In this document: in pieces, positions 3,844 to 55,220 of the stretch | Layout of the letters: the number at the start of each line of letters is the position of its first letter | Numbering within the stretch: the first letter of the stretch is position 1 | DNA from: Clostridia bacterium | GTDB lineage: Bacteria > Bacillota > Clostridia > Oscillospirales > CAG-272 | Assembly: GCA_017473085.1 (NCBI GenBank) | Contig: JAFUNF010000018.1 | Span: forward strand, 11,886 to 75,885 | Direction: 5' to 3' | Length of the DNA stretch: 64,000 bases | Program-made: the position numbers and the translations under genes | The notes under the pieces: generated by a model | Databases searched by the model: none | Told to the model about the DNA's origin: nothing | What the model saw: the letters and a program-made list of their open reading frames with translations, nothing else

Positions 3844-3878
3844 AAAATGCTAAAATAACGGCAAAAGCCGATAAAAAA

Positions 3879-3992
3879 CACTTCTCTCATCCGGACTTTA
3901 ACCGTCGGTTTTGGAATTGCACCAAATCTGCCTAAGGGTTAGGCTCGCAGACTGTACTGCCGGTGGGGAGTTGCACCCCGCCCCGAAATATA
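3879..3992 (-). promoter_or_regulatory. FMN riboswitch (RFN element) aptamer
   Basis: The minus strand reads TTCGGGGCGGGGTGCAACTCCCCACCGGCAGTA...GCAGATTTGGTGCAATTCCAAAACCGACGGTTAAAGTCCGGATGAGAGAAG, matching the conserved RFN core segments. Confidence 0.85.
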
Positions 3993-4350
3993 TTAGGAAC
4001 AGTCAGATAGTGGCATAGAACGAAAAGCAGGATATATTCCCTCTTTTCTGCCTGTTCCCTTTATTTACTTGTCTATAATGTAGAGTTTTTCTATTTGTAG
4101 CATTTTAATACCACTTGCTTTTACCAAGAAAAACTCTTTTTATCTGCTTTTCTAATTGCGTTCTCTACTCTACCGTACAAAGTACGCCTACGCGTACGAG
4201 AACACAATTTCTCTACCCCTCCTGATGCCCCTAGATAGAGCTCCTTTAGGGCAATCATAACGTTTACAAAGTAAACTCATAACTCAACCCCGTTGAGCCA
4301 CACTCCCATTTTACCACTCCGTAGCTTATATGTCAATAAAAAAATGGTTG

Positions 4351-14048: not shown

Positions 14049-16169
14049 CTATTTATTTTTGTAGTCCCATACAACGGGGCATTTTGAATTGTTCCACCAA
14101 CTGTTCCAGCCACTTGGCTCGCTTTCTGCCTCACAGTAGATTGTAAGGCTGCCGCAATCCTCAAACGCATACCTGCCTATTGTTGTTACACTGCTTGGAA
14201 TTTCTATGCTTGCAAGACTTGTACAACCAGAAAACGCCTCCTCGCCTAACGTAGTTACACCGTTTGGTATTTCTATACTTTCAAGGTTACGGCAATTATA
14301 AAATGCTCCCTCGCCTATTGTTGTTACACTGTTTGGAATCTCTATACTTGCAAGTCTCGTACAGCCAGAAAACACATAGTTACCTATTGTAGTTACACTG
14401 CTCGGAATCTCTATGTTTGCAAGGTTCGTACAACCAGAAAACACAGCATTACCTATTGTAGTTACAGGCAAATTATTAATTTTCTCTGGGATTGTAACAC
14501 TTGTTGTATTACCTAAATAATCGTATATTGTAATCTTGTTATCGTTAGTGCTCGCCCACTTTATTCCATCATTGGTTGTGCCATATTCCTTTACGTTCCA
14601 CACAACAAGGCAATTTGAATAGTTCCAACCGCTATTCCAACCACTTGGCTTGCTTTCCGCCTCACAGTAAATTGTTAAGTTGTCACAATCATAAAATGCC
14701 CTTTTGAATATTGTAGTTACACTGCTTGGAATTGTAATACTTTCAAGGTTTGTGCGTTTATAAAACGCCAATTCGCCTATTGTTGTTACAGGCAAATTAT
14801 TAATTTTCTCAGGGATTTTAATGTTTGTTGTCCCACTTGTAATCCCACACACTACTGCCTCGTTTGGCTTATCGTTTGTTGTTGCCCACTTTATTCCATC
14901 TTCTGTTGTGCCATATTCCTTTACGTTCCACACAACAGTACAATATGAACAGTTCCAATCGATGTCCCAACCACTTGGCTTGCTTTTTGCCTCACAATAA
15001 ATTGTTAGATTCAAGCATTTATAAAACGCATACTCGCCTATTGTAGTTACACTGCTTGGTATTTCTATGCTTGCAAGATTTGTACAATTAGAAAATGCAT
15101 TGGCGCCTATTTTTCCGTCTATTATTGTTACCTTTTTCAAGCTTGTTGGAACATAGACATCATTATAAGAATAGGAGCTGGCTCCAAAAATATAACCAAA
15201 GTGTGTCTTGTCACTTCCGTTGCCTACAAATGGTATAGTTATTTCTTCAAGACTTGTGCAGCCAGAAAACACCTCCTCGCCTAACGTAGTTACACTGTTT
15301 GGTATTTCTACGCTTGCAAGACTTGTACAACCAGAAAACGCATAGCTGCCTATTTTTTCTATTCCATTTTGAATAGTTACACTTTCGAGCTTTTTGCAAC
15401 TATAAAATGCAGACTGGTTTATTTTAGTAATTCCACTTGAAATGATAACGCTTTCAAGGTTCGTGCAATTCTCAAACGCAGAGTAGCCTATTGCTTCGAC
15501 AGGTTTATCATTGTAGGTATTGGGTATTACAACTTTTTTTGCACTATCGAGGCAATCTACAACCGTATAGCCCCCTCCACTTTCCTCAAAGGTCAAGGGT
15601 TGGTATTCAGTTTTTGCATAAATTATTAGGTTACCTGTTGTGCCTTTTTCTATTTTTGTAATTGGCTTAGTGTATTCTTGGTCCTCATACCAACCTAAAA
15701 ACGTATAGCCTTCGCCATAGGCGTCCGTTAGGTCAACTTCTGTTTCAATTGTATAGCTTGTTCGGTTATAGTGACTTGCATCGCAAACATACTCAATTTC
15801 ATAGCTAATTGGTGTCCAGCTTGCCTTAAGGGTCATATCCTTAGTTACACCTCTGTAAAAAGGCCATTTATTTCCGTCAATATACCAGTGCTTTAACTCG
15901 TAGCCAAGCCTTTCAGGGTCACTTGGCTTTGGAATTTTACCACCCTTTTCCACCTGTATGCTTTCAATAGCACTTCCACCCTGTGTGTCAAAGGTAATGG
16001 TTACGTATTCGGTATTTGGGTCGGTGTTTCCATTGTCCTCCGTGCCACCTGTTTGAGTGCCATTATTTTCTGTGCCTCCAACGTTATCGTTTCCACCACA
16101 GGACACAAGTCCTATGCACAAAAGTAGGCATAAAACAGCTACACTAAAAAGTAAAATTATTTTTTTCAT
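14049..16169 (-). CDS. BspA-type leucine-rich-repeat surface lipoprotein
   Basis: Signal peptide with lipobox LVSCGG. Listeria-Bacteroides type repeats (YTFLGWY). Many about 23-aa LRR_5 units (IPxSVTTIGxxAFxxCxxL). RBS GGAGGAG. Confidence 0.8.
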   Translation of the reverse strand: MKKIILLFSVAVLCLLLCIGLVSCGGNDNVGGTENNGTQTGGTEDNGNTDPNTEYVTITFDTQGGSAIESIQVEKGGKIPKPSDPERLGYELKHWYIDGNKWPFYRGVTKDMTLKASWTPISYEIEYVCDASHYNRTSYTIETEVDLTDAYGEGYTFLGWYEDQEYTKPITKIEKGTTGNLIIYAKTEYQPLTFEESGGGYTVVDCLDSAKKVVIPNTYNDKPVEAIGYSAFENCTNLESVIISSGITKINQSAFYSCKKLESVTIQNGIEKIGSYAFSGCTSLASVEIPNSVTTLGEEVFSGCTSLEEITIPFVGNGSDKTHFGYIFGASSYSYNDVYVPTSLKKVTIIDGKIGANAFSNCTNLASIEIPSSVTTIGEYAFYKCLNLTIYCEAKSKPSGWDIDWNCSYCTVVWNVKEYGTTEDGIKWATTNDKPNEAVVCGITSGTTNIKIPEKINNLPVTTIGELAFYKRTNLESITIPSSVTTIFKRAFYDCDNLTIYCEAESKPSGWNSGWNYSNCLVVWNVKEYGTTNDGIKWASTNDNKITIYDYLGNTTSVTIPEKINNLPVTTIGNAVFSGCTNLANIEIPSSVTTIGNYVFSGCTRLASIEIPNSVTTIGEGAFYNCRNLESIEIPNGVTTLGEEAFSGCTSLASIEIPSSVTTIGRYAFEDCGSLTIYCEAESEPSGWNSWWNNSKCPVVWDYKNK

Positions 16170-19829: not shown

Positions 19830-21821
19830 TTACTTTTTCTTGGGGGAGTGTCTGTTTTTGTCTGCTTTCGACCTTGTCAAGGACACCCTTTTTTGTGGTA
19901 TTTTTTCCGTCTTAGCCCTTTGATTTTTTGTATTTTTGCCTTGATTTTTTGTATTTTTGGCTTTCTTGCTATTATCCTTATTTTTTTGATTTTGAGCCTT
20001 GAAATACTCGGAGCCGACCCTTAAATCAGGCTTTACTAAGCATTTACCATCAAAGCCGATTAGGTCCTCTTTGCCTGCTTTTGTAACTGCCTCTCTTACA
20101 AGATTTCTGTTTTCGGGCTTCTTGTATTGTAAAAGGGCTCTTTGCATTAGCTTCTCACGATAATCGTCTGCTACATATACCTTTTTGTTGTCAAGTGGAT
20201 TTATGCCTGTATAGTACATAACCGTTGAGGCTGTGCCAGGTGTTGGATAAAAATCCTGCACCTGCTCTGGATTCAAGCCCTGCTCCTTTAGATAAAGGGC
20301 AAGGTCAATTGCATCCTCAATTGTACTGCCTGGGTGGGAGGACATAAGATATGGCACTAAATATTGCTCAAGTCCACATTGGGAGGAAAGCTTAAAATAC
20401 TTTTCCTTAAACTTATTGTAAACCGAAATATCAGGCTTGCCCATATGCTTTAGCACCACCGAGGAGCAATGCTCAGGGGCTACCTTTAATTGACCACTTA
20501 CGTGGTCCTTAACTAACTTTTTAAAGAAAGCATCACTCTTATCGCACATCATATAGTCAAAGCGAATACCCGAGCGAATAAACACCTTTTTTACCTTAGG
20601 TAACGTCTCAACTCGCTTTAAAAGCTCTATGTATTCCGAATGGTCTGCCTTTAAATTCGGACACGGGGTAGGCACTAAGCATTTTCTGTTAGTGCATACG
20701 CCACTTTTTAGTTGCTTATCACAGGCAGGGTATCTGAAGTTGGCAGTAGGACCTCCTATATCGTGAATATAGCCCTTAAAATCACTCATTTCTGTAATAA
20801 GCTTAGCCTCATTAACAACCGACTCTATGCTTCTTGACCTTACCTGTCTTCCTTGATGGAAGGCAAGGGCGCAAAAGTTACAAGCACCAAAGCAACCACG
20901 ATTGTGGGTAATTGAGAATTTAACCTCGCTGATTGCAGGCACTCCACCCTCTTTTTCATACACAGGGTGGTAGTTTCTCATATATGGAAGTGCATAAACC
21001 TTGTCAAGCTCCTCTCTTTCAAGGGGGTAGGCAGGTGGGTTTTGCACTAACTTTTTATTGTCGTAATATTCAACTATCGCCTTACCACTTATGGCATCTT
21101 GATTTTTATATTGAATACCAAAGGCACGAGCATACTCCTGTTTGCTTTCCTTTATTAAATTAAAGTCAAGCTCTGCCCCTACCTCAAAGGGTATTTCGTC
21201 CTCTCTCTTACAGAGATAAACACAGCCACGCTCCCCGCGAATTTTCTTAACAGGCACGCCCTTGTCAAGTAGCTTAGCTATCTTTAAAATAATGCTCTCG
21301 CCCATTCCGTAGGTCAGAATATCGGCACGACTATCAACAAGTATGCTTCTTCGTATTTTGTTGTCCCAATAATCGTAGTGGGCAAAGCGACGAAGAGACG
21401 CCTCAAGTCCACCTAAAATAATCGGCACATCTCCGTAAGCCTCTCTTATTCTGTTTGAATAAACTATAACGGCACGATCAGGTCGCTTACCCATTTTGCC
21501 ACCTGCCGAATAGTAATCATAGCTTCTCTTCTTTTTAGATACAGTATAGTGAGCAACCATTGAGTCAATATTTCCTGCACTTACAAGAAAGCCTAAGCGA
21601 GGCTTACCAAATCTTTTAAAATCCTCTGCACTTTTGTAGTCAGGCTGTGCCAAAACTGCAACCTTAAAGCCTGCATTTTCTAAAACCCTTGTAATTATAG
21701 CAGTGCCAAAGGACGGATGGTCCACGTAAGCGTCTCCACTTACGTAAACAAAATCAGGCACACCCCAGCCAAGTGCGTCGCACTCCTCTTTTGTTATTGG
21801 CAAAAAGCCCTTTTTTGACAT
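19830..21821 (-). CDS. ygiQ: YgiQ family radical SAM protein (UPF0313)
   Basis: CxxxCxxC cluster (CFGACNFCAL) and the YgiQ-type N- and C-terminal domains. Has a lysine/asparagine-rich C-terminal tail. Confidence 0.8.
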   Translation of the reverse strand: MSKKGFLPITKEECDALGWGVPDFVYVSGDAYVDHPSFGTAIITRVLENAGFKVAVLAQPDYKSAEDFKRFGKPRLGFLVSAGNIDSMVAHYTVSKKKRSYDYYSAGGKMGKRPDRAVIVYSNRIREAYGDVPIILGGLEASLRRFAHYDYWDNKIRRSILVDSRADILTYGMGESIILKIAKLLDKGVPVKKIRGERGCVYLCKREDEIPFEVGAELDFNLIKESKQEYARAFGIQYKNQDAISGKAIVEYYDNKKLVQNPPAYPLEREELDKVYALPYMRNYHPVYEKEGGVPAISEVKFSITHNRGCFGACNFCALAFHQGRQVRSRSIESVVNEAKLITEMSDFKGYIHDIGGPTANFRYPACDKQLKSGVCTNRKCLVPTPCPNLKADHSEYIELLKRVETLPKVKKVFIRSGIRFDYMMCDKSDAFFKKLVKDHVSGQLKVAPEHCSSVVLKHMGKPDISVYNKFKEKYFKLSSQCGLEQYLVPYLMSSHPGSTIEDAIDLALYLKEQGLNPEQVQDFYPTPGTASTVMYYTGINPLDNKKVYVADDYREKLMQRALLQYKKPENRNLVREAVTKAGKEDLIGFDGKCLVKPDLRVGSEYFKAQNQKNKDNSKKAKNTKNQGKNTKNQRAKTEKIPQKRVSLTRSKADKNRHSPKKK

Positions 21822-21883
21822 ATTCTTTCCCCTTTAATGAAAGAACAGATACAAACGCATCTGTTCTTCTCTCTTTTTAAAAT

Positions 21884-22013
21884 CAACCGACAGGTTGTAT
21901 ATCATCACGCAAGGCGTGTATATCATCAACCCTTGGTTGTATATCATCACTACCACAGGTAGTGTATATCATCAACCTCTAGGTTGTATATCATCACAAC
22001 GAAGTTGTGTATC
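21884..22013. repeat. hairpin-linker array, TATATCAT flavour (6 hairpins, 5 linkers)
   Basis: caacc-gaca-ggttg, TATATCAT, cacgc-aag-gcgtg, TATATCAT, caacc-ctt-ggttg, TATATCAT, cactacc-aca-ggtagtg, TATATCAT, caacctctaggttg, TATATCAT, cacaac-gaa-gttgtg. Confidence 0.8.
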
Positions 22014-22307
22014 CTACTCCTCGTCGTCCTCTTCTGCCAAAAGGTCGATGATGTCATTTGCGATTTTTTCGTCCTCAACGTAGTTAAGGCAATCCTTTTC
22101 CTCGTCAACCTGGAAGATAAGCACCTCGTCCTCGCCTACTCCCTCAAGCTTTGTTATAGGAGCAAGAACTGCGTAGTAGCTACCCTCGTAATCTACAAGT
22201 GCAACTTGGTCGAACTCAACCTCCTTGCCACTATTGTCCTTTATAGTAATTGGCTCAAAGTTATTATCATCAAAGAGCCTGTCAACGAATCTCTCATTAT
22301 TAGCCAT
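22014..22307 (-). CDS. DUF1292 family protein
   Basis: 97-aa acidic protein (MANNERFVDRLFDDNNFEPITIKDNSGKEVEF...YYAVL). RBS GGAGG. The start overlaps the dnaB end by 8 nt. Confidence 0.75.
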   Translation of the reverse strand: MANNERFVDRLFDDNNFEPITIKDNSGKEVEFDQVALVDYEGSYYAVLAPITKLEGVGEDEVLIFQVDEEKDCLNYVEDEKIANDIIDLLAEEDDEE

Positions 22308-23658
22308 AATATCCTCCACTTCCATCGCCCATATTCTTTTCAAGGCTTGAAAACTTAGTAAATTCACCAGTCCAGCCCATTTGAACTGTACCTGTGTTAC
22401 CCTGACGGTTTTTAGCAACGATAACGTCAACTAAATGAGCCTTTTCAGGGTCCTCTCCGTAGTAGTCACGAGAGAGGAATATAACCTTGTCCGCATCCTG
22501 CTCGATTGAGCCTGACTCACGAAGGTCAGAAAGCATAGGCTTTCTCTTTTCCTTTTCCTTTTCAGATGCACGACCTAACTGTGAGCAGGTAATAACAGGC
22601 ACGTTTAATTCAAGTGCCAATAGCTTAAGACCTCTTGTAAGGTCAGAAACCTCGTTTACACGAGAGCCGTCCTTACGAAGCTTATCAGATTGCATAAGCT
22701 GAAGGTAGTCAACTATTACAAGCCCAAGATTTTTAATTCTGCGAAGCTTGGACTTCATTGCGTTTATAGTAATGTTAGATGTATCATCAATAAAAATGTT
22801 TGTTTCGGAAAGGGTTGCCGAGGCATAAGCCAAGCTATCCCAATCCTTTTCCTCCAATTGACCTGTACGAAGCTTAGTTGCATCAATCAGTGCCTCGGAG
22901 GACAAGATTCTTGAAACTAACGCCTCATTAGGCATTTCAAGGGAGAAAATACAAACGGCTTGCTTAGATTTTTTAGCCACGTTTGCACCTATGTTAAGAC
23001 AAAAGGCAGTTTTACCTACACCAGGACGAGCGCCAACAATAATAAGTTCACCCTTGCCAAGACCTACAATCATACTGTCAAGGTCCTTAAAGCCACAGGG
23101 TAAGCCCTTACCCTCGCTTGGGTTTTCCTTTAGCTCCTTCAGATTTTCGCAAACCTGCACTAAAACGTCTCTTATATGAACAAAGTCACGCTTTTCATTT
23201 CTTTCAGCAATTTCAAAAATTCTTTGCTCAGCTACGTCAACAAGGTTTTCAACGGTATCGTTTTCCTCGTATGCGTCCTTTTCAATTTGTTGAGACGCCT
23301 CAATAAGTCTTCTTAAAACGCTCTTATCGTAAACTATCTTTACATAGTCCCTGATATTAGCAGTTGTAGGCACAATATCAACCAAAAGCTGAATGTAGGA
23401 GTGAGCAGCACTCTCGTCGCTATAAATACCAGAGGTAACTATTGCATTAATTACAGCAATATTGTCAACTGCCTTGTTTTCACTCTTTAAATCAACTATT
23501 GTTTCGTAAATTTTTTGGTGGTCCTCAACATAGAAGTCTCTTGGCTTAAGGCTTTGACTTGCTATCTCGTAGCACACCTCAGGGTCTGCAATAATACAAC
23601 CCAAAACTGCCTGCTCTGCATCAACAGAATAGGGCATTTTTCTTTGTAGTGAGTCCAT
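22300..23658 (-). CDS. dnaB: replicative DNA helicase
   Basis: Walker A GARPGVGKTAF, LVIVDYLQLM and SQLGRASEKE motifs. 452 aa. Confidence 0.9.
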   Translation of the reverse strand: MDSLQRKMPYSVDAEQAVLGCIIADPEVCYEIASQSLKPRDFYVEDHQKIYETIVDLKSENKAVDNIAVINAIVTSGIYSDESAAHSYIQLLVDIVPTTANIRDYVKIVYDKSVLRRLIEASQQIEKDAYEENDTVENLVDVAEQRIFEIAERNEKRDFVHIRDVLVQVCENLKELKENPSEGKGLPCGFKDLDSMIVGLGKGELIIVGARPGVGKTAFCLNIGANVAKKSKQAVCIFSLEMPNEALVSRILSSEALIDATKLRTGQLEEKDWDSLAYASATLSETNIFIDDTSNITINAMKSKLRRIKNLGLVIVDYLQLMQSDKLRKDGSRVNEVSDLTRGLKLLALELNVPVITCSQLGRASEKEKEKRKPMLSDLRESGSIEQDADKVIFLSRDYYGEDPEKAHLVDVIVAKNRQGNTGTVQMGWTGEFTKFSSLEKNMGDGSGGYYG

Positions 23659-32061: not shown

Positions 32062-33303
32062 ATGAAACGAATACTAACTAAATTTCTCATTCTTGCCCTT
32101 TGCCTTTCTATGATCCTTCCTTGCCTTTATTCCTGTGGCAATAATCAGGACGTTTATAGGTTAGGTGCCTATTCAATTAAGGAGGACGAATATCATTATC
32201 TTTTAGGTATGCAAAAAATGCAGGCGCTAAAGTCCCTCGGATATAGTGAAGAGGATATTGACCTTGAAATACAACAGGGCTATACCTTAGGAGATTATAT
32301 CGACGCAGCTTATTCCAGCCAGTTCGAGCAATCTGTTTTGACTCTTCTTTTCTCTGTTGCACTTTTTGACGAGTACCAGCTTACAATCAGCGATGAGAAA
32401 AGAAACACCTCAAACGAAATCATAGACACTCTTTTGACCTACTATGGTGGCTATTCAGAGAAATTTCTTGATAAAAGGCTTGACTCCTTAGGCTACAAGT
32501 TTACAACTGATACTCTAAGACGTGTTTACGAAATGCAAATGAAGCAGGGTGCAGTTATTGAGCACCTTTATGGTAGCAATTACGAAAAGCTAACAGATAG
32601 CGAAAAGGAAAGCTTTTGCAACGATTACTATATGCACTTTCAGGTTATTGTAGTAAATACTCTTTATAAAAGCCACACCGACTCAAATGGTAAAACCACC
32701 TATGTAAATCTTACACAGGACGAGATAAACGTGCAAAAGCGTATAGTTACTGAGCTTACAGAGCTTTTAGTAAACGACAACAAGGACTTTAACTATATAA
32801 TCATCGACCCCACCCTTTCCTACGAGGAGCTTTGGGAAAAATACTCTGACGATACTCTATATAAGCAGGGCTACTTTATGAAAAAGCCTGTGTCCTCTCA
32901 GCTTGCAAGCTCTCAAACACTTGCAACTGCCCTTGCATTGAAAACAGGGGACTGTGGAGTTGTCCCAGCCAAAAGATATTTTGATGGTAATGGCTCCATA
33001 ACCACCGAAAATGGTGAGGAGCAAATAAATGCAGGGGACTATTTCGAATATGGCTCTGCCTTCATCAAAAAGTTAGATATGGAAAAGGACGCATACACAA
33101 AGGAGGAAAACAAGGACTTTTTCTTCCCTGAGGGCTCAAACACCTTCAACCAACAGGCTTGTCAAAGTGCCTTTTATCAAAGACTAAAGGCTTACGAAAA
33201 GGAAAGCTCCATAGTGGTTGAGGTTTCTAACAAAAAGGACCAGTACACCATTAGTAGCTCAAAGGCAAACGAGCTTGATTATTACTATTTCTTTGGCGAC
33301 TAA
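32062..33303 (+). CDS. putative lipoprotein, function unknown
   Basis: Signal peptide with a lipobox-like LYSCGN. 413 aa. No catalytic motif recognised. Confidence 0.55.
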   Translation: MKRILTKFLILALCLSMILPCLYSCGNNQDVYRLGAYSIKEDEYHYLLGMQKMQALKSLGYSEEDIDLEIQQGYTLGDYIDAAYSSQFEQSVLTLLFSVALFDEYQLTISDEKRNTSNEIIDTLLTYYGGYSEKFLDKRLDSLGYKFTTDTLRRVYEMQMKQGAVIEHLYGSNYEKLTDSEKESFCNDYYMHFQVIVVNTLYKSHTDSNGKTTYVNLTQDEINVQKRIVTELTELLVNDNKDFNYIIIDPTLSYEELWEKYSDDTLYKQGYFMKKPVSSQLASSQTLATALALKTGDCGVVPAKRYFDGNGSITTENGEEQINAGDYFEYGSAFIKKLDMEKDAYTKEENKDFFFPEGSNTFNQQACQSAFYQRLKAYEKESSIVVEVSNKKDQYTISSSKANELDYYYFFGD

Positions 33304-33540
33304 GCCTTCCCCCAAGGGAAATGAAATCCACCTGTGGTGGATGAAATCGCTATGCGATGAAATCGTTACACGATGAAATCCTTGCTCTACAAGGATGAAA
33401 AAGCCGACACAGTGTCGGCTTTTTTAGTTTCATTCGACGTTAGGCGAATTTCAAGCACGACGAAGTCGTGTATTTCAAGCTAACTTCAGTTAGCATTTCA
33501 AGTGCGTTTCAACGCACATTTCATTCACCGAAGGTGTAGT
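33301..33540. repeat. mirror-symmetric hairpin-linker array (ATGAAAT half, terminator, ATTTCAW half)
   Basis: Left half: ccacc-tgt-ggtgg, cgc-tat-gcg, cgt-tac-acg and cctt-gctctac-aagg, joined by ATGAAAT. Centre: agccgacac-a-gtgtcggct with A/T runs. Right half: cacgac-gaa-gtcgtg, ctaac-ttca-gttag, tgcg-tttcaa-cgca and cacc-gaa-ggtg, joined by ATTTCAAG or ATTTCAT. Confidence 0.8.
33397..33425. terminator. bidirectional terminator at the centre of the array
   Basis: aaaaagccgacacagtgtcggcttttt. Confidence 0.8.
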
Positions 33541-39335: not shown

Positions 39336-39340
39336 TAAGA

Positions 39341-39376
39341 CAAAAAGACTTACTCAACCGAGTAAGTCTTTTTTTA
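39341..39376 (+). terminator. rho-independent terminator after the LRR gene
   Basis: aaaaagacttactc-aacc-gagtaagtcttttttt. Confidence 0.8.
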
Positions 39377-39377
39377 A

Positions 39378-39483
39378 TGAAATGTGCTACGCACTTGAAA
39401 TGCTAACTAAAGTTAGCTTGAAATACACGACAAGGTCGTGCTTGAAATGAAGCTAAAGCTTCATAAAAACCATTGCTACGCAA
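39378..39483. repeat. hairpin-linker array, (A/T)TGAAAT flavour; inverted homologue of 33428-33536
   Basis: gtgc-tac-gcac, gctaac-taaa-gttagc, cacgac-aag-gtcgtg, gaagc-taaa-gcttc and ttgc-tac-gcaa, joined by ATGAAAT or TTGAAAT. Confidence 0.75.
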
Positions 39484-41162: not shown

Positions 41163-41237
41163 GCTGGAGTAGCACAGTGGTAGTGCAGCTGATTCGTAAT
41201 CAGCAGGTCGTGAGTTCAAATCTCATCTTCAGCTCCA
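41163..41237 (+). tRNA. tRNA-Thr (anticodon CGT)
   Basis: Cloverleaf: acceptor GCTGGAG/CTTCAGC, anticodon stem GCTGA/TCAGC with loop TTCGTAA, T-arm GTGAG-TTCAAAT-CTCAT, encoded CCA. Confidence 0.85.
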
Positions 41238-41240
41238 AAA

Positions 41241-41280
41241 AATACTGCAGAAAAGGATACTTTTTCTGCAGTATTTTTTT
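41241..41280 (+). terminator. rho-independent terminator after the tRNA
   Basis: aatactgcagaaaa-ggatac-tttttctgcagtatt followed by TTTTTTT. Confidence 0.8.
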
Positions 41281-41282
41281 AT

Positions 41283-41466
41283 CCAAACTGCAGGTTTGGT
41301 ATATCATCACGCCTCGGCGTGTATATCATCAGCCCTTTGTGGCTGCATATCATCGCGACTTAGTCGTGCATACCCCACCCTGCTGTTTGATGATATACAA
41401 TGCTTTTCTCGCATTGGTGATATGCAATTCCTTGCAGAATTGATGATATGCAAGGCTGATGCCTTG
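41283..41466. repeat. bipartite hairpin-linker array, TATATCAT flavour (direct half plus inverted half)
   Basis: Left half: ccaaac-tgcag-gtttgg, cacgcc-tc-ggcgtg, cagcc-ctttgt-ggctg and cgcgac-tta-gtcgtg, joined by (T/C)ATATCAT. Right half: caatgc-ttttctc-gcattg, caattc-cttgca-gaattg and caaggc-tgat-gccttg, joined by (G/A)TGATAT(A/G). Confidence 0.8.
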
Positions 41467-41512
41467 ATTTTAATGTTAGAATGTGGTACAATACACCCAA
41501 AGAGGTGATATT

Positions 41513-41860
41513 GTGTCAAAAAACTATTTATTGATATATTCGGAACAACTCGCAACTGAAATAGAATTGATGTGCCAAAATATAAAAGCTCCATCAAATA
41601 CTTTGTTCCAAATACGTAAAAGCTCAAGCAGTGTTTATGCCAATATCCGTGAGGCAAATTATGGTCAAAGTAAAGCAGATATGCTTTCCAAATTTGAAAT
41701 TGCTCTTAAAGAATGCAGCGAAACTGAAGGCTGGTTACAGCTATTGTTCAACACAAATGGTATAGACGAAGAAACATACAAAAGCCACCGAAATCTTTGC
41801 GGACGCATTAGACGAATGTTGATTTCAAGTTGCAAAACGTTAAAGAATATTGGAAAGTAA
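41513..41860 (+). CDS. four-helix-bundle protein (23S rRNA intervening-sequence protein / Avd-like family)
   Basis: About 115 aa with the family-typical helices (IRKSSSSVYANIREANYGQSKADMLSKFEIALKECSETEGWL). GTG 41513 with RBS AGAGGTGA is preferred. Confidence 0.65.
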   Translation: MSKNYLLIYSEQLATEIELMCQNIKAPSNTLFQIRKSSSSVYANIREANYGQSKADMLSKFEIALKECSETEGWLQLLFNTNGIDEETYKSHRNLCGRIRRMLISSCKTLKNIGK

Positions 41861-41920
41861 AAAAACTATTAGCAATTATACTTCTGTCTTGTACGCTCTG
41901 CTTTGAGGTTTTTCAATTAA

Positions 41921-42147
41921 ATCCGTCCGAAACGGGATAAATCCACAAATGTGGATGAAATCACTACGAGAACCCCCTAAAATTCTCCGAATTTTTGGGG
42001 AACCCCTACATGATGAAATCAAGCTTCGCTTGGAGATAAGTAAGACGGATTTGATTTCATTTTTCCAACGGAAAGATTTCATTCGACCCTAGTCGGATTT
42101 CATTACACAAGGTATACTTCGTAATGTGCGTAAGCACAATTTCATTT
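41921..42147. repeat. bipartite hairpin-linker array, ATGAAAT then ATTTCAT flavour
   Basis: Left half: ccac-aaat-gtgg and caagc-ttc-gcttg, with ATGAAAT linkers. Right half: tttcc-aac-ggaaa, tcgac-ccta-gtcgg and tgtgc-gtaa-gcaca, with ATTTCAT(T) linkers. Confidence 0.7.
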
Positions 42148-42267: not shown

Positions 42268-43791
42268 ATGATTTACACAGAAAAAACAAAAAAGGCGCTT
42301 GCCTTGTGCTTTGAGGCACACAAGAATCAGGTTGACAAAGCAGGTATGCCTTATGTTTTTCACCCCTTTCATTTGGCTGAGCAAATGAAAACAGAGGAAG
42401 AAACCATAGTTGCTCTTTTGCACGACGTGGTTGAGGACACGGACTACACGCTTGCAGATTTAGAAAAAATGGGCTTTGGAGTGTCTGTAATTGAAGCATT
42501 AAAGCTCCTTACTCACGACACCTCGGTTGATTATTTTGACTACGTTAAAGCGATTTCCCAAAACGAAATAGCAAGGGCCGTTAAAATTGCCGACCTTACC
42601 CACAACTCTACCCTTGAAAGATTTGACTACAAGGACATTACCCCTTGGGACATAGAAAGACAGAAAAAATATTTCAAGGCGCTTGAAATATTAGGCGAGG
42701 TACCATACAAAAACAAGTATATGCTTTGTATCTGTTGTGGTGCTACCACCTTTAACAAGGACTACGTAGGTGCATTTGACACTTGCCCTATCTGTGGCTT
42801 TAATGACGAGGATTTGGTTACTAAGGACATAACCCTTGAGGGTGCACGACAACATTTTATAGAAAGCAAAAAAATAATAAAATATGTATTGCCACTGGGC
42901 TTAAGACGAGAAAAAATGACAAATTTAAAATACGAAAGAAAGCCTTCTAAAAATGAAATTACAATAACAGGGCTTTCTGACAAAAATGTAACCGAGGTTG
43001 TTATACCTGATGAAATTGACGGAAGCAAGGTTACAGAAATAGGCGACTCTGCCTTTTGGGATTGTGAGGAGCTTACAAGCGTTATAATTCCAAAGGGTGT
43101 AACCACAATAGGTGTCTCCGCCTTTTCAGGTTGCAATGAGCTTAGAAGCATTATAATTCCAGATAGTGTAACCACAATTGGCGCCTTTGCTTTTTTCAAC
43201 TGCACAAGGCTTAAAAATATTGAATTTCCAAATAGTATAGCTACCATAGGACGTTCCGCCTTTATGTATTGTAAAGGACTCACAAGTGTTACAATTCCAA
43301 ACAGTGTATCGAAAATAGAGACAAACATCTTTTCTGGTTGTACAGGACTTACAAGTGTTGTAATTCCAAACAGTGTAACTGCAATAGGCTCCTCCGCTTT
43401 TCATGGTTGCACAGGTCTTAAAATCATTGTGATTCCAAAAGGTGTAACTGCAATAGGTTCCTCTGCCTTTTGGGGTTGCACGTCACTTACAAATATTACA
43501 ATTCCAAACAGCGTTACGAAAATAGGTTTGAGTGCCTTTTTCAATTGCACGTCACTTACAAATATTACAATTCCAAACAGCGTTACGAAAATAGGTTTGA
43601 GTGCCTTTTTCAATTGCACGTCACTTACAAATATTACAATTCCAAACAGCGTTACAAAGATGGACAGCCATGTTTTCTTGAAATGTGATAATCTTACAAT
43701 TTACGCACAAGCAAATTCCAAGCCACGTGGTTGGGATTCCAATTGGAATCCAGACAACCGACCTGTTGTATGGGGTCACAATGGTCAATAA
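42268..43791 (+). CDS. fusion protein: HD-domain (RelA/SpoT-type small alarmone hydrolase-like), CPCC zinc ribbon and BspA-type LRR
   Basis: N-terminal HKNQVDKAGMPYVFHPFHLAE...LLHDVVEDT (HD_4 type). Middle CICCGATTF...CPICGFNDED. C-terminal 23-aa LRR_5 units. No signal peptide. RBS GAGGAG. Confidence 0.75.
   Translation: MIYTEKTKKALALCFEAHKNQVDKAGMPYVFHPFHLAEQMKTEEETIVALLHDVVEDTDYTLADLEKMGFGVSVIEALKLLTHDTSVDYFDYVKAISQNEIARAVKIADLTHNSTLERFDYKDITPWDIERQKKYFKALEILGEVPYKNKYMLCICCGATTFNKDYVGAFDTCPICGFNDEDLVTKDITLEGARQHFIESKKIIKYVLPLGLRREKMTNLKYERKPSKNEITITGLSDKNVTEVVIPDEIDGSKVTEIGDSAFWDCEELTSVIIPKGVTTIGVSAFSGCNELRSIIIPDSVTTIGAFAFFNCTRLKNIEFPNSIATIGRSAFMYCKGLTSVTIPNSVSKIETNIFSGCTGLTSVVIPNSVTAIGSSAFHGCTGLKIIVIPKGVTAIGSSAFWGCTSLTNITIPNSVTKIGLSAFFNCTSLTNITIPNSVTKIGLSAFFNCTSLTNITIPNSVTKMDSHVFLKCDNLTIYAQANSKPRGWDSNWNPDNRPVVWGHNGQ
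43477..43655 (+). repeat. perfect 69-bp tandem repeat (2.6 copies) inside the LRR coding region
   Basis: The unit tgcacgtcacttacaaatattacaattccaaacagcgttacgaaaataggtttgagtgcctttttcaat starts at 43477, 43546 and 43615. It equals one 23-aa LRR unit. Confidence 0.9.
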
Positions 43792-43865: not shown

Positions 43866-44735
43866 ATGACAGATTTAATATACGAAATCGATACTTCAAA
43901 ATACGAAATTAAAATAACGGGAGTTTCCGATAAAAGTAAAAAGGAACTCGTTATTCCTGATGAAATAGACGGAATGGCTGTTACGGAAATAAGCAAAAGT
44001 GCATTTGAGAATTACGAGGAGCTTACAAGCGTGACAATTCCAAGCAGTGTAACCAGCATCGATTCCTATACCTTTGTCACTTGCAAAAAGCTTTCGGCTA
44101 TTATTGTTAAAGAAAACAATAGGACGTATAAATCTATTGACGGAAACTTGTATTCAAAGGATGGAAAAACTCTTATTCGATATGCCATAGGCAAAAAGGA
44201 CACCTCGTTTAAAATTCCAAACGACGTAACTGCATTAGCCCATTTCGCCTTTGCCAATTGCGCAAACCTTAAAAGTATTACAATGCCAAACAGTATAACC
44301 TCAATAGGTGCGTATGCCTTTTCACGTTGCACAGGGATTTCACGCATTGTTGTGCCAAGAGGTGTAACCACAATAGGCAAGCTTGCCTTTGACCACTTCA
44401 TAGGACTTGAAAGTGTTAAAATTCCAAGTAGTGTAACCTGCATCGATCACTTTGCCTTTGCCAATTGCCCAAGCCTTAAAAGTGTTAATATTCCAAGGAG
44501 CATAACCAATATCGGACACTTTGCCTTTATCCATTGCTTAAGCCTTAAAAACGTTACAATTCCAAAGAGTGTAACCAGCATCGGCAAAGAGACCTTTAAG
44601 GGCTGCACAAGTCTTACAATCCACGCACAAGTAAAATCTAAGCCTGACGGTTGGATTCCCAATTGGAATCCAGCCAATAGACCTGTCGTGTGGGGTTACA
44701 AAAAATGGTTCGGTCAAGGAAAGAATACAAAGTAA
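43866..44735 (+). CDS. BspA-type LRR protein, no signal peptide
   Basis: 289 aa of LRR_5 units. The N-terminus MTDLIYEIDTSKYEIKITG is paralogous to the internal M215 region of the preceding gene. RBS AAAGGAG. Confidence 0.75.
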   Translation: MTDLIYEIDTSKYEIKITGVSDKSKKELVIPDEIDGMAVTEISKSAFENYEELTSVTIPSSVTSIDSYTFVTCKKLSAIIVKENNRTYKSIDGNLYSKDGKTLIRYAIGKKDTSFKIPNDVTALAHFAFANCANLKSITMPNSITSIGAYAFSRCTGISRIVVPRGVTTIGKLAFDHFIGLESVKIPSSVTCIDHFAFANCPSLKSVNIPRSITNIGHFAFIHCLSLKNVTIPKSVTSIGKETFKGCTSLTIHAQVKSKPDGWIPNWNPANRPVVWGYKKWFGQGKNTK

Positions 44736-44736
44736 A

Positions 44737-45603
44737 ATGATAAATTTAAAATATGAAAAAAATCCTTCTAAAAATGAAATTACAATAACAGGACTTTCCT
44801 ACAAAAATGTAACCGAGGTTGTTATTCCTGCCGAAATTGACGGAATGGCAGTTACAGAAATAGGCGACTGTGCATTTTTGGATTGTGAGAAGCTTACGAG
44901 TGTTATAATTCCTAAGGGTGTAACCCACATTGGCAAGGATGCATTTTCGGGCTGTTCCTCCCTTACAAGCATCACACTTCCAGAGGGTGTAACAGCAATT
45001 GGCGAGTGTGCCTTTTGGCATTGTACAAGGCTTAAAAGCATTACTATTCCAAGCACAGTAACCTCAATTGGCGACTATGCCTTTCCCGATTGCGAGGAGC
45101 TTACAAGTATTATAATTCCTAATGGTGTAACAGCAATTGGCGAGTGTTGCTTTTCTGGTTGTATAAGCCTAAAAAGTGTAACAATTCCAAGCACTGTAAC
45201 CACAATTGGCGACTGTGCATTTGCAGGCTGTGAGGAGCTTACAAGCGTTACAATTCCCAAGAGTGTAACCACCATTGGTGCAAGTGCCTTTAGGAATTGT
45301 CAAGGGCTTAGAAGCATTGCATTTCCAGAGAGTGTAACCCACATTGGCAAGGAAGCCTTTTACGATTGCATATCGCTTACAAGTATAGTAATTCCAAAGG
45401 GTGTTGATACCTTAAATAATGGTGTCTTTTCTTGGTGCACACGTCTTACAAGCGTCACTATTCCAGAGGGCGTTACCACCATTGACAAGTGTGCCTTTTA
45501 TGGTTGTACCTCTCTTAAATGCGTCACAATACCAAGGAGTGTAACAACAATTGGCGAGCGTGCATTTTCCGATTGCACAATTATTGCATACAACAAAAAA
45601 TAG
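44737..45603 (+). CDS. BspA-type LRR protein, no signal peptide
   Basis: 288 aa of LRR_5 units. The N-terminus MINLKYEKNPSKNEITITG is nearly identical to the internal MTNLKYERKPSKNEITITG of the 42268 gene. Confidence 0.75.
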   Translation: MINLKYEKNPSKNEITITGLSYKNVTEVVIPAEIDGMAVTEIGDCAFLDCEKLTSVIIPKGVTHIGKDAFSGCSSLTSITLPEGVTAIGECAFWHCTRLKSITIPSTVTSIGDYAFPDCEELTSIIIPNGVTAIGECCFSGCISLKSVTIPSTVTTIGDCAFAGCEELTSVTIPKSVTTIGASAFRNCQGLRSIAFPESVTHIGKEAFYDCISLTSIVIPKGVDTLNNGVFSWCTRLTSVTIPEGVTTIDKCAFYGCTSLKCVTIPRSVTTIGERAFSDCTIIAYNKK

Positions 45604-55088: not shown

Positions 55089-55116
55089 ACTCCTTTCTTA
55101 AGGCTTACAATATAAC

Positions 55117-55217
55117 CCTGCGAAGCAGGATTTCATCGTGAAAGCGATTTCATTCACCAAAGGTGGATTTCATCCGTCAAAGACGGATTTCATTGCGTTG
55201 TGACTTTGTCACAACGC
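55117..55217. repeat. hairpin-linker array, ATTTCAT flavour (5 hairpins)
   Basis: cctgc-gaa-gcagg, ATTTCAT, cgt-gaaa-gcg, ATTTCAT, tcacc-aaa-ggtgg, ATTTCAT, ccgtc-aaa-gacgg, ATTTCATT, gcgttgtgac-ttt-gtcacaacgc. Confidence 0.8.
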
Positions 55218-55220
55218 CGA

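Follow-up and report, generated by a model that had tools for sequence, protein, structure and literature searches.

Modular repeats that resemble miniature inverted-repeat transposable elements (MITEs) include the pneumococcal BOX elements, in which the number of boxB modules varies, and the Correia elements and Neisseria intergenic mosaic elements (NIMEs). A repetitive extragenic palindrome (REP) is defined by the tetranucleotide GTAG or GTGG lying 0-2 nt 5' of a hairpin (PMC6006769). The Gut-1 motif (Rfam RF01706) was described from human-gut metagenomes only, with no sequenced organism assigned, as a probable non-coding RNA without a proposed function, and it was rated as certainly an RNA on the basis of covariation (Weinberg et al. 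2010, PMC2864571). In the Rfam model, the Gut-1 consensus consists of three hairpins separated by (G/A)UGAAAU, where A-U and U.G pairs close the stems and only GAA is left unpaired. Herein, an array of six hairpins and five linkers at 21.9 kb of a 64-kb stretch of a Clostridia contig (JAFUNF010000018.1) was analyzed and compared with these systems. The whole 64-kb stretch is referred to as the window.

We tentatively favor, at somewhat less than an even chance, the reading that the 21.9-kb array is a diverged member of a superfamily of elements with the pattern "GC-rich hairpin + 7-8-nt AU-rich linker" in Oscillospirales-type gut and rumen Clostridia. These elements resemble MITEs and bacterial interspersed mosaic elements (BIMEs), and the 21.9-kb array would have a passive role at most.

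The 21.9-kb array and its relation to Gut-1

The array was read directly as six perfect hairpins with stems of 5-7 bp, joined by five exact copies of the linker TATATCAT with periods of 21, 21, 25 and 22 nt (Table 1). The conserved unit is really a 12-mer, TGTATATCATCA, which occurs in the array in 5 exact copies. When up to two mismatches were allowed, the window contained 16 matches to this 12-mer, compared with 5.45 +/- 2.05 in shuffled sequence, and none of 100 shuffles reached 16. The array was also detected by Tandem Repeats Finder (TRF), and its folding z-score was about -4.1 on each strand. The same array sequence is present in a 231-kb ENA metagenome scaffold and, separately, in the Logan assembly of run SRR12529333, two assemblies that may or may not share a source sample. 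The identical array in two assemblies makes an assembly artefact unlikely. These data confirm that the array is real and far beyond chance.

The layout given in an earlier note on this DNA (six hairpins, five identical linkers and a period of 21-25 nt) was thus read again in full. Its further statement, that the array begins 4 nt past the stop codon of the DUF1292 gene, is equally correct: hairpin 6 is followed by TATC (22010-22013), a partial linker, and then by CTA (22014-22016), the minus-strand TAG stop. The same note called the stem sequences unrelated. The stems do differ overall, but 3 of the 6 share CAACC/GGTTG.

At the gathering thresholds, the Rfam models matched only a tRNA and a flavin mononucleotide (FMN) riboswitch (RF00050; 110 bits; 3875-3994, minus strand) in the window, and nothing at the arrays. 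The gathering cut-off of Gut-1 is 50 bits. Many arrays are arms of composites whose two arms are oppositely oriented, and in GC-richer relatives the Gut-1 model matched arm 1 of such composites with 71-74 bits where the linkers contain UGAAAU and with 57-61 bits where they contain UGAUAU, the same class as in the 21.9-kb array. Window scores below the cut-off were taken in E-value mode, and four matches at other arrays reached 31.5-49.1 bits (Table 1). The 21.9-kb array scored 19 bits (E = 0.22; minus strand, 21915-21996), below the cut-off. Its linker in this sense, AUGAUAUA, has AUGA-AU in common with AUGAAAU. The nucleotides on either side of each CA..TG hairpin are both A (both T when the other strand is read); all 8 linker nucleotides are therefore unpaired, and the closing pairs of Gut-1 are absent. 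The habitat agrees with that of Gut-1: the window is a metagenome scaffold, and the relatives are metagenome-assembled genomes (MAGs) of gut and rumen Clostridia.

Because of the different linker, the 8 unpaired nucleotides and the sub-threshold score, the 21.9-kb array is, as judged from its sequence, a diverged relative of Gut-1 and not a formal member. The branch of the hairpin-linker superfamily with UGAAAU/UGAUAU linkers is the orphan Gut-1 motif. The earlier suggestion that the array belongs to no described repeat class therefore holds only in part: sister arrays match the catalogued Gut-1 family above threshold, and the 21.9-kb array itself reaches only 19 bits. A literature search on the linker sequence and on repeat, REP and hairpin-array terms returned no description of the element.

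These results give Gut-1 identifiable hosts among the Clostridia (Oscillospiraceae, Acutalibacteraceae and related MAGs) and show that the three-hairpin RNA of the catalogue is one arm of larger inverted composites and one branch of a superfamily with interchangeable linker classes. The literature that was located does not cover the mosaic, mobile character of Gut-1-type elements, the interchange of their linker classes or the cassette of tRNA, terminator and PF05635 gene described below.

Family range, composite architecture and turnover

The 21.9-kb array is not an isolated oddity; it is one of six in the window, and hundreds were found in related genomes. Runs of three or more perfect hairpins with 5-12 nt between them were sought mechanically; six were present in the window versus 0-3 in shuffles, and one of the six, at 34.9 kb, has the look of a chance occurrence. 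Direct reading, together with a relaxed linker pattern, located six arrays, at 21.9, 33.3-33.5, 39.4, 41.24-41.47, 41.9-42.15 and 55.1 kb, a density of about one per 10 kb.

Genome collections were scanned with one genome per species for three linkers spaced 9-20 nt. At least 120 loci were found with TATATCAT and at least 119 with GATTTCAT. The matches listed were nearly all MAGs of Clostridia, Oscillospiraceae, Acutalibacteraceae, Faecousia, Eubacteriales and Christensenellaceae from guts and rumens, with goat, deer and sheep among the sources, and the few matches outside these groups were ordinary tandem repeats. A comparison with shuffled controls, as proposed in the earlier note, showed that the sequences between the linkers are foldable well above expectation. 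A perfect stem of at least 4 bp was present in 186 of the 276 distinct inter-linker spacers of the TATATCAT class versus about 24 in shuffles, and 108 of 230 spacers of the GATTTCAT class were foldable versus about 16. Viral contigs with the same linker pattern gave almost only plain AT-rich tandem repeats and one true composite (locus L164). The near absence of true arrays indicates that this is not a phage feature, and the viral scan doubles as a specificity control.

The linker is constant within an array. Across arrays, at least five classes were found, namely TATATCAT, GATTTCAT, TATTTCAA, TATGGAAT and, in gene sense, AATGATGT; TATGGAAT is the reverse complement of ATTCCATA. The linker can thus be called invariant, as the earlier note had it, within one array only, since the orthologous array of a near-identical strain carries ATTCCATA. 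Two registers occur: either the hairpin lies flush with both linkers, as in the CA..TG type of the 21.9-kb array, or one 5' nucleotide remains unpaired.

A typical composite consists of a tRNA 3' end (CCA), an intrinsic terminator, a first hairpin termed hp0, arm 1, a segment complementary to the 5' arm of hp0, arm 2 and a promoter-like TTGAxx-17-TATAAT, whose -35 box is supplied by the end of the array. The long-range complementarity of hp0 is 10-11 of 11 nt in 13 distinct variants, which represent four or five different sequences. The tRNAs beside composites differ between loci, and a tRNA gene lies no more than 250 nt upstream of 55 of the 149 arms. A one-to-one pairing of left and right linkers in the composites was considered and dropped, since the copy numbers of the two arms are unequal. 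Entire composites occur in tandem in L049 (7450-8000), L360 (1180-1700) and L078, and in L078 the terminator half and arm 1 are copied again after the four-helix-bundle gene. A family-B composite is also present in NZ_CP188040.1 (L074).

Composite A of the window, found through the 12-mer, reads in order: tRNA-Thr terminator, hp0, three TATATCAT-hairpin units, an hp0-complementary segment, three ATGATATR-hairpin units and TTGATT..TACAAT, which is a promoter-like site for a four-helix-bundle gene. At 33.4 kb, the T-run of the terminator plus CAT makes up the first linker-like 8-mer. Three hairpin types at 39336-39464 are ordered as in the right arm at 33.45 kb.

The 21.9-kb array fits the same plan. 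Together with the preceding segment 21841-21883, it corresponds to the left half of family-A composites, "terminator-ATC-hp0-(linker-hairpin)n". Its hp0 is AACCGACAGGTT, with the same GACA loop as CAAGCCGACAGGCTTG of the tRNA-linked composites, and this first hairpin (21884-21897) is identical in the relative L476. No plus-strand gene precedes the hairpin at 21841-21868, which indicates that this hairpin belongs to the repeat module and is not a gene's own terminator.

The history of the 21.9-kb site was followed through relatives in which the order dnaB-DUF1292-ygiQ is conserved. In species at 66-68% DnaB identity, the spacer contains a plain hairpin only and no array. An array remnant is found at the orthologous site of L241 (85% DnaB identity), and the eight hairpins of L252 (96% amino-acid identity) include a duplicated block of three units. 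Finer sampling was obtained via DUF1292 homologues. L457 and L459, with flanks about 91% identical to the window, have 8 hairpins with linkers ATGATATA/ATGATATG/GTGATATA. The flanks of L463 are 98.7% and 98.4% identical to those of L457, yet L463 has 5 hairpins with ATTC(C)ATA linkers of the ATTCCATA class; near-identical flanks (about 98.5%) thus carry ATGATATA in one case and ATTCCATA in the other. In L460, the flanks are 84.5-87.5% identical to L463 and the array is 96% identical to that of L463. L476, whose flanks are about 91% identical to the window, has 7 hairpins with ATTCCATA linkers, and its last hairpin CAACCTGTCGGTTG and right flank are as in the window. The bounds are constant across the alleles, with TAG-(G)ATA on one side and ATT.. 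plus a GAACAG.. hairpin on the other. These constant bounds indicate that entire arrays are exchanged with sharp boundaries. Some hairpins persist across linker classes at this site. A metagenome scan for the junction of the 21.9-kb array gave no match. Single-unit microheterogeneity was also seen: L457 and L459, two assemblies of one species, differ in the array solely at the last hairpin (CACGATTTGCGTG versus CACGCCTTGCGTG).

At 55.1 kb, L470 and L471 have an array-free orthologous spacer of 21-22 nt, compared with 132 nt with an array in the window. In L472, the spacer is 110 nt and holds a different array with the linker AATGATGT. In both filled cases, the insert starts at the TA of the ancestral TAA stop and brings a new TAG. 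The junctions tentatively fit insertion with duplication of TA, and terminal inverted repeats, which a MITE as a derivative of a DDE transposon would have together with a target-site duplication of fixed length, are not evident. Four hairpins at 55.1 kb are ordered as in composites of unrelated MAGs. The absence of the array from orthologous spacers indicates an insertion, and the hairpin order common to composites indicates a dispersed copy.

The composite at 41.9 kb is common to the window and L259 (RsmA 62% identical), where it directly follows the tRNA-Thr terminator. Between tRNA-Thr and the 41.9-kb composite, the window has a block, made of terminator, composite A, promoter and PF05635 gene, that looks like an insertion. 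The available rsmA-tRNA-Thr orthologues (up to 65% identity) were too distant for a clean empty site of composite A. Compensatory double changes were found in homologous hairpins: TCGC/GCGA, TCTC/GAGA and TAGC/GCTA, as well as CACTACC/GGTAGTG versus CACTGCC/GGCAGTG.

These comparisons show that the elements are dispersed, insertion-polymorphic, mosaic MITE/BIME-like repeats, with presence/absence polymorphism as in MITEs at both the 55.1-kb and the 21.9-kb sites, and that units are duplicated or lost in register with their linkers. They also show that whole arrays are exchanged between alleles and species, that compensatory change keeps the hairpins foldable, and that the preferred locations are beside terminator-type hairpins, tRNA 3' ends and stop codons.

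Table 1 Positions of the 21.9-kb array, its sister arrays and neighboring features in the window.
Feature	Position	Strand	Remarks
Six-hairpin, five-linker array	21884..22009	minus = Gut-1-like sense (hairpin-AUGAUAUA-hairpin) = mRNA strand	direct reading, TRF, folding, Rfam model
Hairpin 1, CAACC-GACA-GGTTG, CAACCgacaGGTTG	21884..21897		plus-strand reading; homologue of the family-A composite hp0 (CAAGCC-GACA-GGCTTG)
Linker 1, TATATCAT	21898..21905	+	direct reading
Hairpin 2, CACGC-AAG-GCGTG, CACGCaagGCGTG	21906..21918		direct reading
Linker 2, TATATCAT	21919..21926	+	direct reading
Hairpin 3, CAACC-CTT-GGTTG, CAACCcttGGTTG	21927..21939		direct reading
Linker 3, TATATCAT	21940..21947	+	direct reading
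Hairpin 4, CACTACC-ACA-GGTAGTG, CACTACCacaGGTAGTG	21948..21964		relatives carry compensated CACTGCC/GGCAGTG
Linker 4, TATATCAT	21965..21972	+	direct reading
Hairpin 5, CAACC-TCTA-GGTTG, CAACCtctaGGTTG	21973..21986		direct reading
Linker 5, TATATCAT	21987..21994	+	direct reading
Hairpin 6, CACAAC-GAA-GTTGTG, CACAACgaaGTTGTG	21995..22009		direct reading
Terminator-like hairpin AAGAACAGAT..ATCTGTTCTT, then CTCTCTTTTT, AAAATC	21841..21883	+	terminator scan; kept in relatives
Composite between convergent genes: stop, (hairpin-ATGAAATC) x5, bidirectional terminator (33398-33424), (ATTTCAW-hairpin) x5	33303..33530		
Terminator, then (WTGAAAT-hairpin) x4	39336..39464		
Composite A, linker class as in the 21.9-kb array	41238..41470		second site; found by 12-mer search
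Composite C, ATGAAATC/GATTTCAT linkers	41910..42147		orthologous to the composite directly after tRNA-Thr in L259
Intercistronic Gut-1-like array	55089..55220	-	Rfam model, ortholog comparison
Gut-1 model match, 49.1 bits	55125-55195	minus	
Gut-1 model match, 47.9 bits	33319-33384	plus	
Gut-1 model match, 33.2 bits	33422-33503	minus	
Gut-1 model match, 31.5 bits	42071-42147	minus	
DUF1292 gene (PF06949)	22014..22307	-	TAG stop abuts the array
dnaB	22300-23658	-	upstream of DUF1292
Radical SAM YgiQ-type gene (PF08497, PF11842)	19830..21821	-	downstream of DUF1292

Strand, transcription and alternative explanations

The array sits inside the 192-nt spacer between DUF1292 and ygiQ. The minus-strand gene order is a gene for a GdpP-like DHH protein, rplI, dnaB, DUF1292 and ygiQ, followed by rpmH and rnpA. 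Reading of the gene strands verified that the array is on the side toward which the dnaB-DUF1292 operon is transcribed, with AUGAUAUA in mRNA sense, as had been proposed. The array is probably co-transcribed as six stem-loops of Gut-1 sense in the DUF1292-ygiQ spacer.

On the favored reading, the 21.9-kb element would be one half of a family-A composite, made of the terminator-like hairpin, hp0 and (linker-hairpin)5. Its orientation would keep the terminator-like module out of the path of the dnaB-DUF1292(-ygiQ) transcript, and the array transcript is predicted to fold into six independent stem-loops of Gut-1 sense. The effect, if any, would be that of a passive intercistronic or 3'-untranslated-region stem-loop cluster, which may serve as a 3'-exonuclease barrier or as processing punctuation. 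On the opposite strand, the hairpins together with the hairpin at 21841-21868 would halt antisense transcripts directed into the operon. The most economical explanation would be a mosaic element of MITE/BIME-like type that is tolerated in non-polar orientation.

The two strands were compared in 233 foldable units. On the TATATCAT strand, single stem mismatches were G:T in 20 cases versus A:C in 2 (p = 1e-4), and the loops were rich in G..A (GAA, GCA, GTA, GCAA); this bias of mismatches and loops toward the TATATCAT strand is present in both composite arms. Other evidence points to the Gut-1 sense. Of the arrays that follow a stop codon within 50 nt, 18 were in Gut-1 sense relative to the gene and 6 in the opposite sense (p = 0.02); the 21.9-kb array agrees with this bias and was left out of the count. 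The Rfam model has its U.G closing pairs in the Gut-1 sense, and per-unit energies made most units marginally more stable in that sense. No orientation bias relative to flanking genes was found for arrays in general, the bias being restricted to those within 50 nt of a stop codon. The two strands may be under different constraints; the terminator-like sense, for instance, could be polar and for that reason be kept out of operon transcripts.

Several points weigh against the MITE/BIME-like reading. Clear terminal inverted repeats were not found, and the only hint of a target duplication, TA, is weak. No mobilizing gene was found: a crude HUH/Y1 (histidine-hydrophobic-histidine, single-tyrosine) pattern, applied to the window and about 310 non-viral loci following the suggestion of the earlier note to look for Y1 transposases, returned none. 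The genes neighboring the arrays are diverse, and neighbor clustering revealed no recurrent enzyme gene. Some composites have been kept at the same tRNA over deep divergence (the window versus L259, RsmA 62%), and arrays are sometimes better conserved than the flanking genes; both observations are as compatible with a host function as with recent transfer. The lines of evidence for the folding strand contradict one another, with mismatches and loops on the side of the TATATCAT strand and gene context, Rfam and energies on the side of the opposite strand. Finally, the co-transcription of the array and any effect of its RNA are matters that we infer.

The best-surviving alternative, itself unlikely, is a dedicated structured RNA. 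The array would then be a platform or sponge in AUGAUAUA sense, either a cis element or a processed small RNA (sRNA), with its single-stranded linkers bound by an RNA-binding protein or nuclease. The covariation rating of Gut-1 (PMC2864571), the preservation of hairpins by compensatory changes and the long retention of some sites are all in keeping with an RNA, as are the 18 versus 6 arrays in Gut-1 sense behind stop codons and the slightly greater stability of most units in that sense. However, many arrays are placed after a strong intrinsic terminator and ahead of the following promoter, where transcription should be low. Both orientations occur, and the composites always have both. The linker class is replaceable wholesale at one site, the number of units varies freely, and the stem mismatches would be A.C in the AUGAUAUA sense.

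A strand-specific fail-safe terminator or insulator is somewhat less probable still. Here the TATATCAT-sense unit, a GC hairpin followed by UAUAUCAU, UAUUUCAA or GAUUUCAU, would act as a weak intrinsic terminator or pause module. Arrays would reinforce a canonical terminator and protect the genes beside them from read-through or antisense transcription, and the array at 21.9 kb would shield dnaB-DUF1292 from plus-strand transcripts. The G.U-compatible mismatches and G..A loops of the TATATCAT strand agree with this proposal, and so does a hairpin that is flush with the following linker. Arrays begin right after terminator T-runs, and at 33.4 kb T-run plus CAT is the first linker-like 8-mer; composites span both directions between terminator and promoter; and the non-terminating orientation prevails within operons and behind stop codons. 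In the tail, however, position 2 is invariably A and TCA is conserved, unlike in a U-tract, and the ATTCCATA class (UAUGGAAU in TATATCAT sense) is even less U-rich. The terminator scan flagged the hairpin at 21841-21868, which has a T-run, and none of the six array hairpins.

Of similarly low probability is the proposal that undescribed, linker-class-specific machinery, either a structure-specific nuclease or recombinase or the PF05635 proteins of the tRNA-linked cassettes, writes the arrays and moves them by inserting or replacing hairpin-linker units beside terminator hairpins and stop codons. If true, this would be a novel system of gut Clostridia for mobility or for building arrays, with Gut-1 as its footprint in RNA or single-stranded DNA (ssDNA).

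It is doubtful that the units are ssDNA substrates of an HUH (Y1) enzyme in the style of REPs and their REP-associated tyrosine transposases (RAYTs) or of IS200/IS605 ends. Such an enzyme would cut one strand at a hairpin plus a ..TCAT/..TCAA motif, and arrays would be built and blocks moved by excision and then insertion beside a motif already present. A hairpin with a conserved flanking motif does resemble REP and IS200 ends (PMC6006769). The strand asymmetry, the block insertion, the shuffling of units between alleles and the inverted-arm composites, which are like BIMEs and REP doublets forming hairpins (REPINs), would also be accommodated, and TnpA of the IS200 type is common in Clostridia. 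On the other hand, the GTAG/GTGG foot is missing, the stems are much shorter (4-7 bp) and are not conserved within a genome, and linker classes without TCA exist. The crude Y1 pattern search was negative in the window and about 310 non-viral loci, although RAYT-type genes, which the repeats typically flank, are single-copy and could lie elsewhere.

PF05635 is the four-helix-bundle family that includes the "23S rRNA intervening sequence protein" and Avd (Pfam). Among array-selected loci and the window, 24 of 27 PF05635 open reading frames (ORFs) lie directly behind a composite promoter with at least three linker-like 8-mers within 260 nt upstream, and no such ORF occurs in 96 control loci. About one tenth of the arrays are directly upstream of a PF05635 gene, with an example at 41513-41860 in the window and none by the 21.9-kb array. 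The nearest solved homologue of the protein is the uncharacterized 2RLD, with five chains in the entry.

It is equally improbable, in our view, that the arrays are binding platforms for an oligomer of this Avd-like protein, as operator-like or chromosomal candidate sites. The association above and the five chains of 2RLD, set beside arrays of typically 3-6 units, are the points that favor it. About 90% of the arrays, including that at 21.9 kb, however, have no such gene nearby, and the association may only reflect a gene that rides on the same tRNA-linked cassette. Several linker classes exist, each of which would need a matching specificity. A single universal linker-binding factor was likewise considered; this candidate is weakened by the ATTCCATA or ATGATATA linkers in orthologous arrays.

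The recurrent cassette itself occupies 41163-41860 of the window and contains a tRNA, an intrinsic terminator, an inverted composite, a strong promoter-like site and a small PF05635 gene. It is also found in L002, L003, L018, L022, L037, L068, L072, L078, L164, L342, L347 and L364. The species differ in the identity of the tRNA but have nearly the same terminator stem and protein, a pattern which suggests that the cassette is mobile and lands just after tRNA genes. Other short repeats, the heptamers ATTCATT/AATGAAT and CTTCACT/AGTGAAG, also make up inverted structures linked to a tRNA and terminator, at about 4000-4230 of L059 and upstream of rsmA in L263, and one heptamer structure in L059 is followed by a PF05635 gene. 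The theme of tRNA flank and four-helix bundle may be wider than the hairpin-linker arrays.

Practically negligible, finally, are chance periodicity, an assembly artefact, a CRISPR-like (clustered regularly interspaced short palindromic repeats) array or a type III antitoxin array, since the repeat-spacer look is superficial only, the shuffle statistics and the two assemblies speak against the former two, and the latter two are at odds with 8-nt repeats, palindromic "spacers" and the lack of cas or toxin genes nearby.

If confirmed, these findings would provide a testable handle on what is possibly the main interspersed repeat of dominant, poorly cultured gut bacteria. In practice, the arrays could serve as hypervariable strain markers and as compact natural stem-loop cassettes. 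They are also a likely source of assembly breaks and of false CRISPR or sRNA calls.

Genomic setting and comparison with known systems

All genes between 18967 and 26132 (rnpA, rpmH, ygiQ, DUF1292, dnaB, rplI and the gdpP-like gene) are on the minus strand, and the gene strand switches at about 26.2-26.4 kb. dnaA and dnaN are not adjacent to rpmH in the window. The GC skew in the window tracks gene orientation only, and no replication direction was derivable from it. A 21-bp tandem repeat (2.2 copies; 19917-19964) at the 3' end of ygiQ codes for a Lys/Asn-rich tail of the KNTKNQ type. Tandem repeats with periods of 69 and 138 bp are located in genes for BspA-type leucine-rich-repeat proteins (PF13306) at 14163-14466, 43067-43655, 44383-44583 and 44962-45404, and the copies at 43476-43655 are 100% identical. 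The BspA-type protein encoded at 42268-43791 has a Cys-rich CPCC N-terminus and a weak, sub-threshold HD_4 match (23.2 bits; cut-off 27.2).

The closest likeness is to Gut-1. Both have successive short GC-rich hairpins and a conserved A/U-rich linker in the same organisms and genomic contexts, and the mRNA strand at 21.9 kb is the Gut-1 strand. The 21.9-kb array differs by its AUGAUAUA linker, by six units and not three, and by an A.A clash that replaces the A-U and U.G closing pairs. The published Gut-1 description is silent on organism, function, array variability, composites, the tRNA/terminator link and mobility.

REPs, BIMEs and REPINs are similar in that they are extragenic palindromes in inverted mosaics, with conserved inter-unit motifs, locations at gene 3' ends and terminators, high copy numbers and strand-asymmetric hairpins; REPs are also, like the arrays described here, candidates for mRNA 3' protection. 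High copy number and inverted clusters are evident from the six sites in 64 kb and the common inverted-arm composites. However, in the REPs and BIMEs of Enterobacteria and Pseudomonas the palindrome is conserved and the stems are 7-20 bp, whereas here the linker is conserved per array, the stems of 4-7 bp vary by unit and site with a limited vocabulary that recurs, and the host phylum is different. The flank of the array is TATATCAT/ATGATATA in place of a GTAG or GTGG foot. The earlier placement of the array outside both CRISPR and canonical REPs is upheld by the missing foot, the 8-nt repeat and the palindromic spacers.

The BOX and Correia elements share intergenic mosaics, a variable number of modules, foldability, promoter- or terminator-like ends and insertion polymorphism between strains. 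The arrays described here differ in their much smaller units (about 21 nt), in the lack of defined terminal inverted repeats and in linker classes that are interchangeable at one site. Rho-independent terminators resemble the arrays in the GC-rich hairpin followed by an A/U-rich tract, and arrays start at, and in some cases flank, real bidirectional terminators. The array tail, in contrast, is not an intrinsic-terminator tail: it lacks a U-run, with 4 U in 8 nt and A at position 2.

The alternation of constant and variable elements, with a constant element that is uniform per array and differs between arrays, recalls CRISPR. In CRISPR, however, repeats of about 23-55 nt separate unique non-palindromic spacers, whereas here an 8-nt constant element alternates with palindromes of 11-19 nt from a small recurring vocabulary, there is no cas gene or leader, and the neighbors are dnaB, DUF1292 and a radical SAM gene. 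ToxI-like arrays have near-identical repeats of about 34-40 nt before an endoribonuclease toxin gene; the units at 21.9 kb are 21-25 nt with differing stems, and the downstream gene is of the YgiQ type. The intervening sequences of 23S rRNA with a PF05635 gene are similar in that a four-helix-bundle gene lies beside stable-RNA genes and structured inverted-repeat DNA. This likeness applies to the sister elements only, and in these the PF05635 gene follows a tRNA, a terminator and a promoter and is not located inside an rRNA helix.

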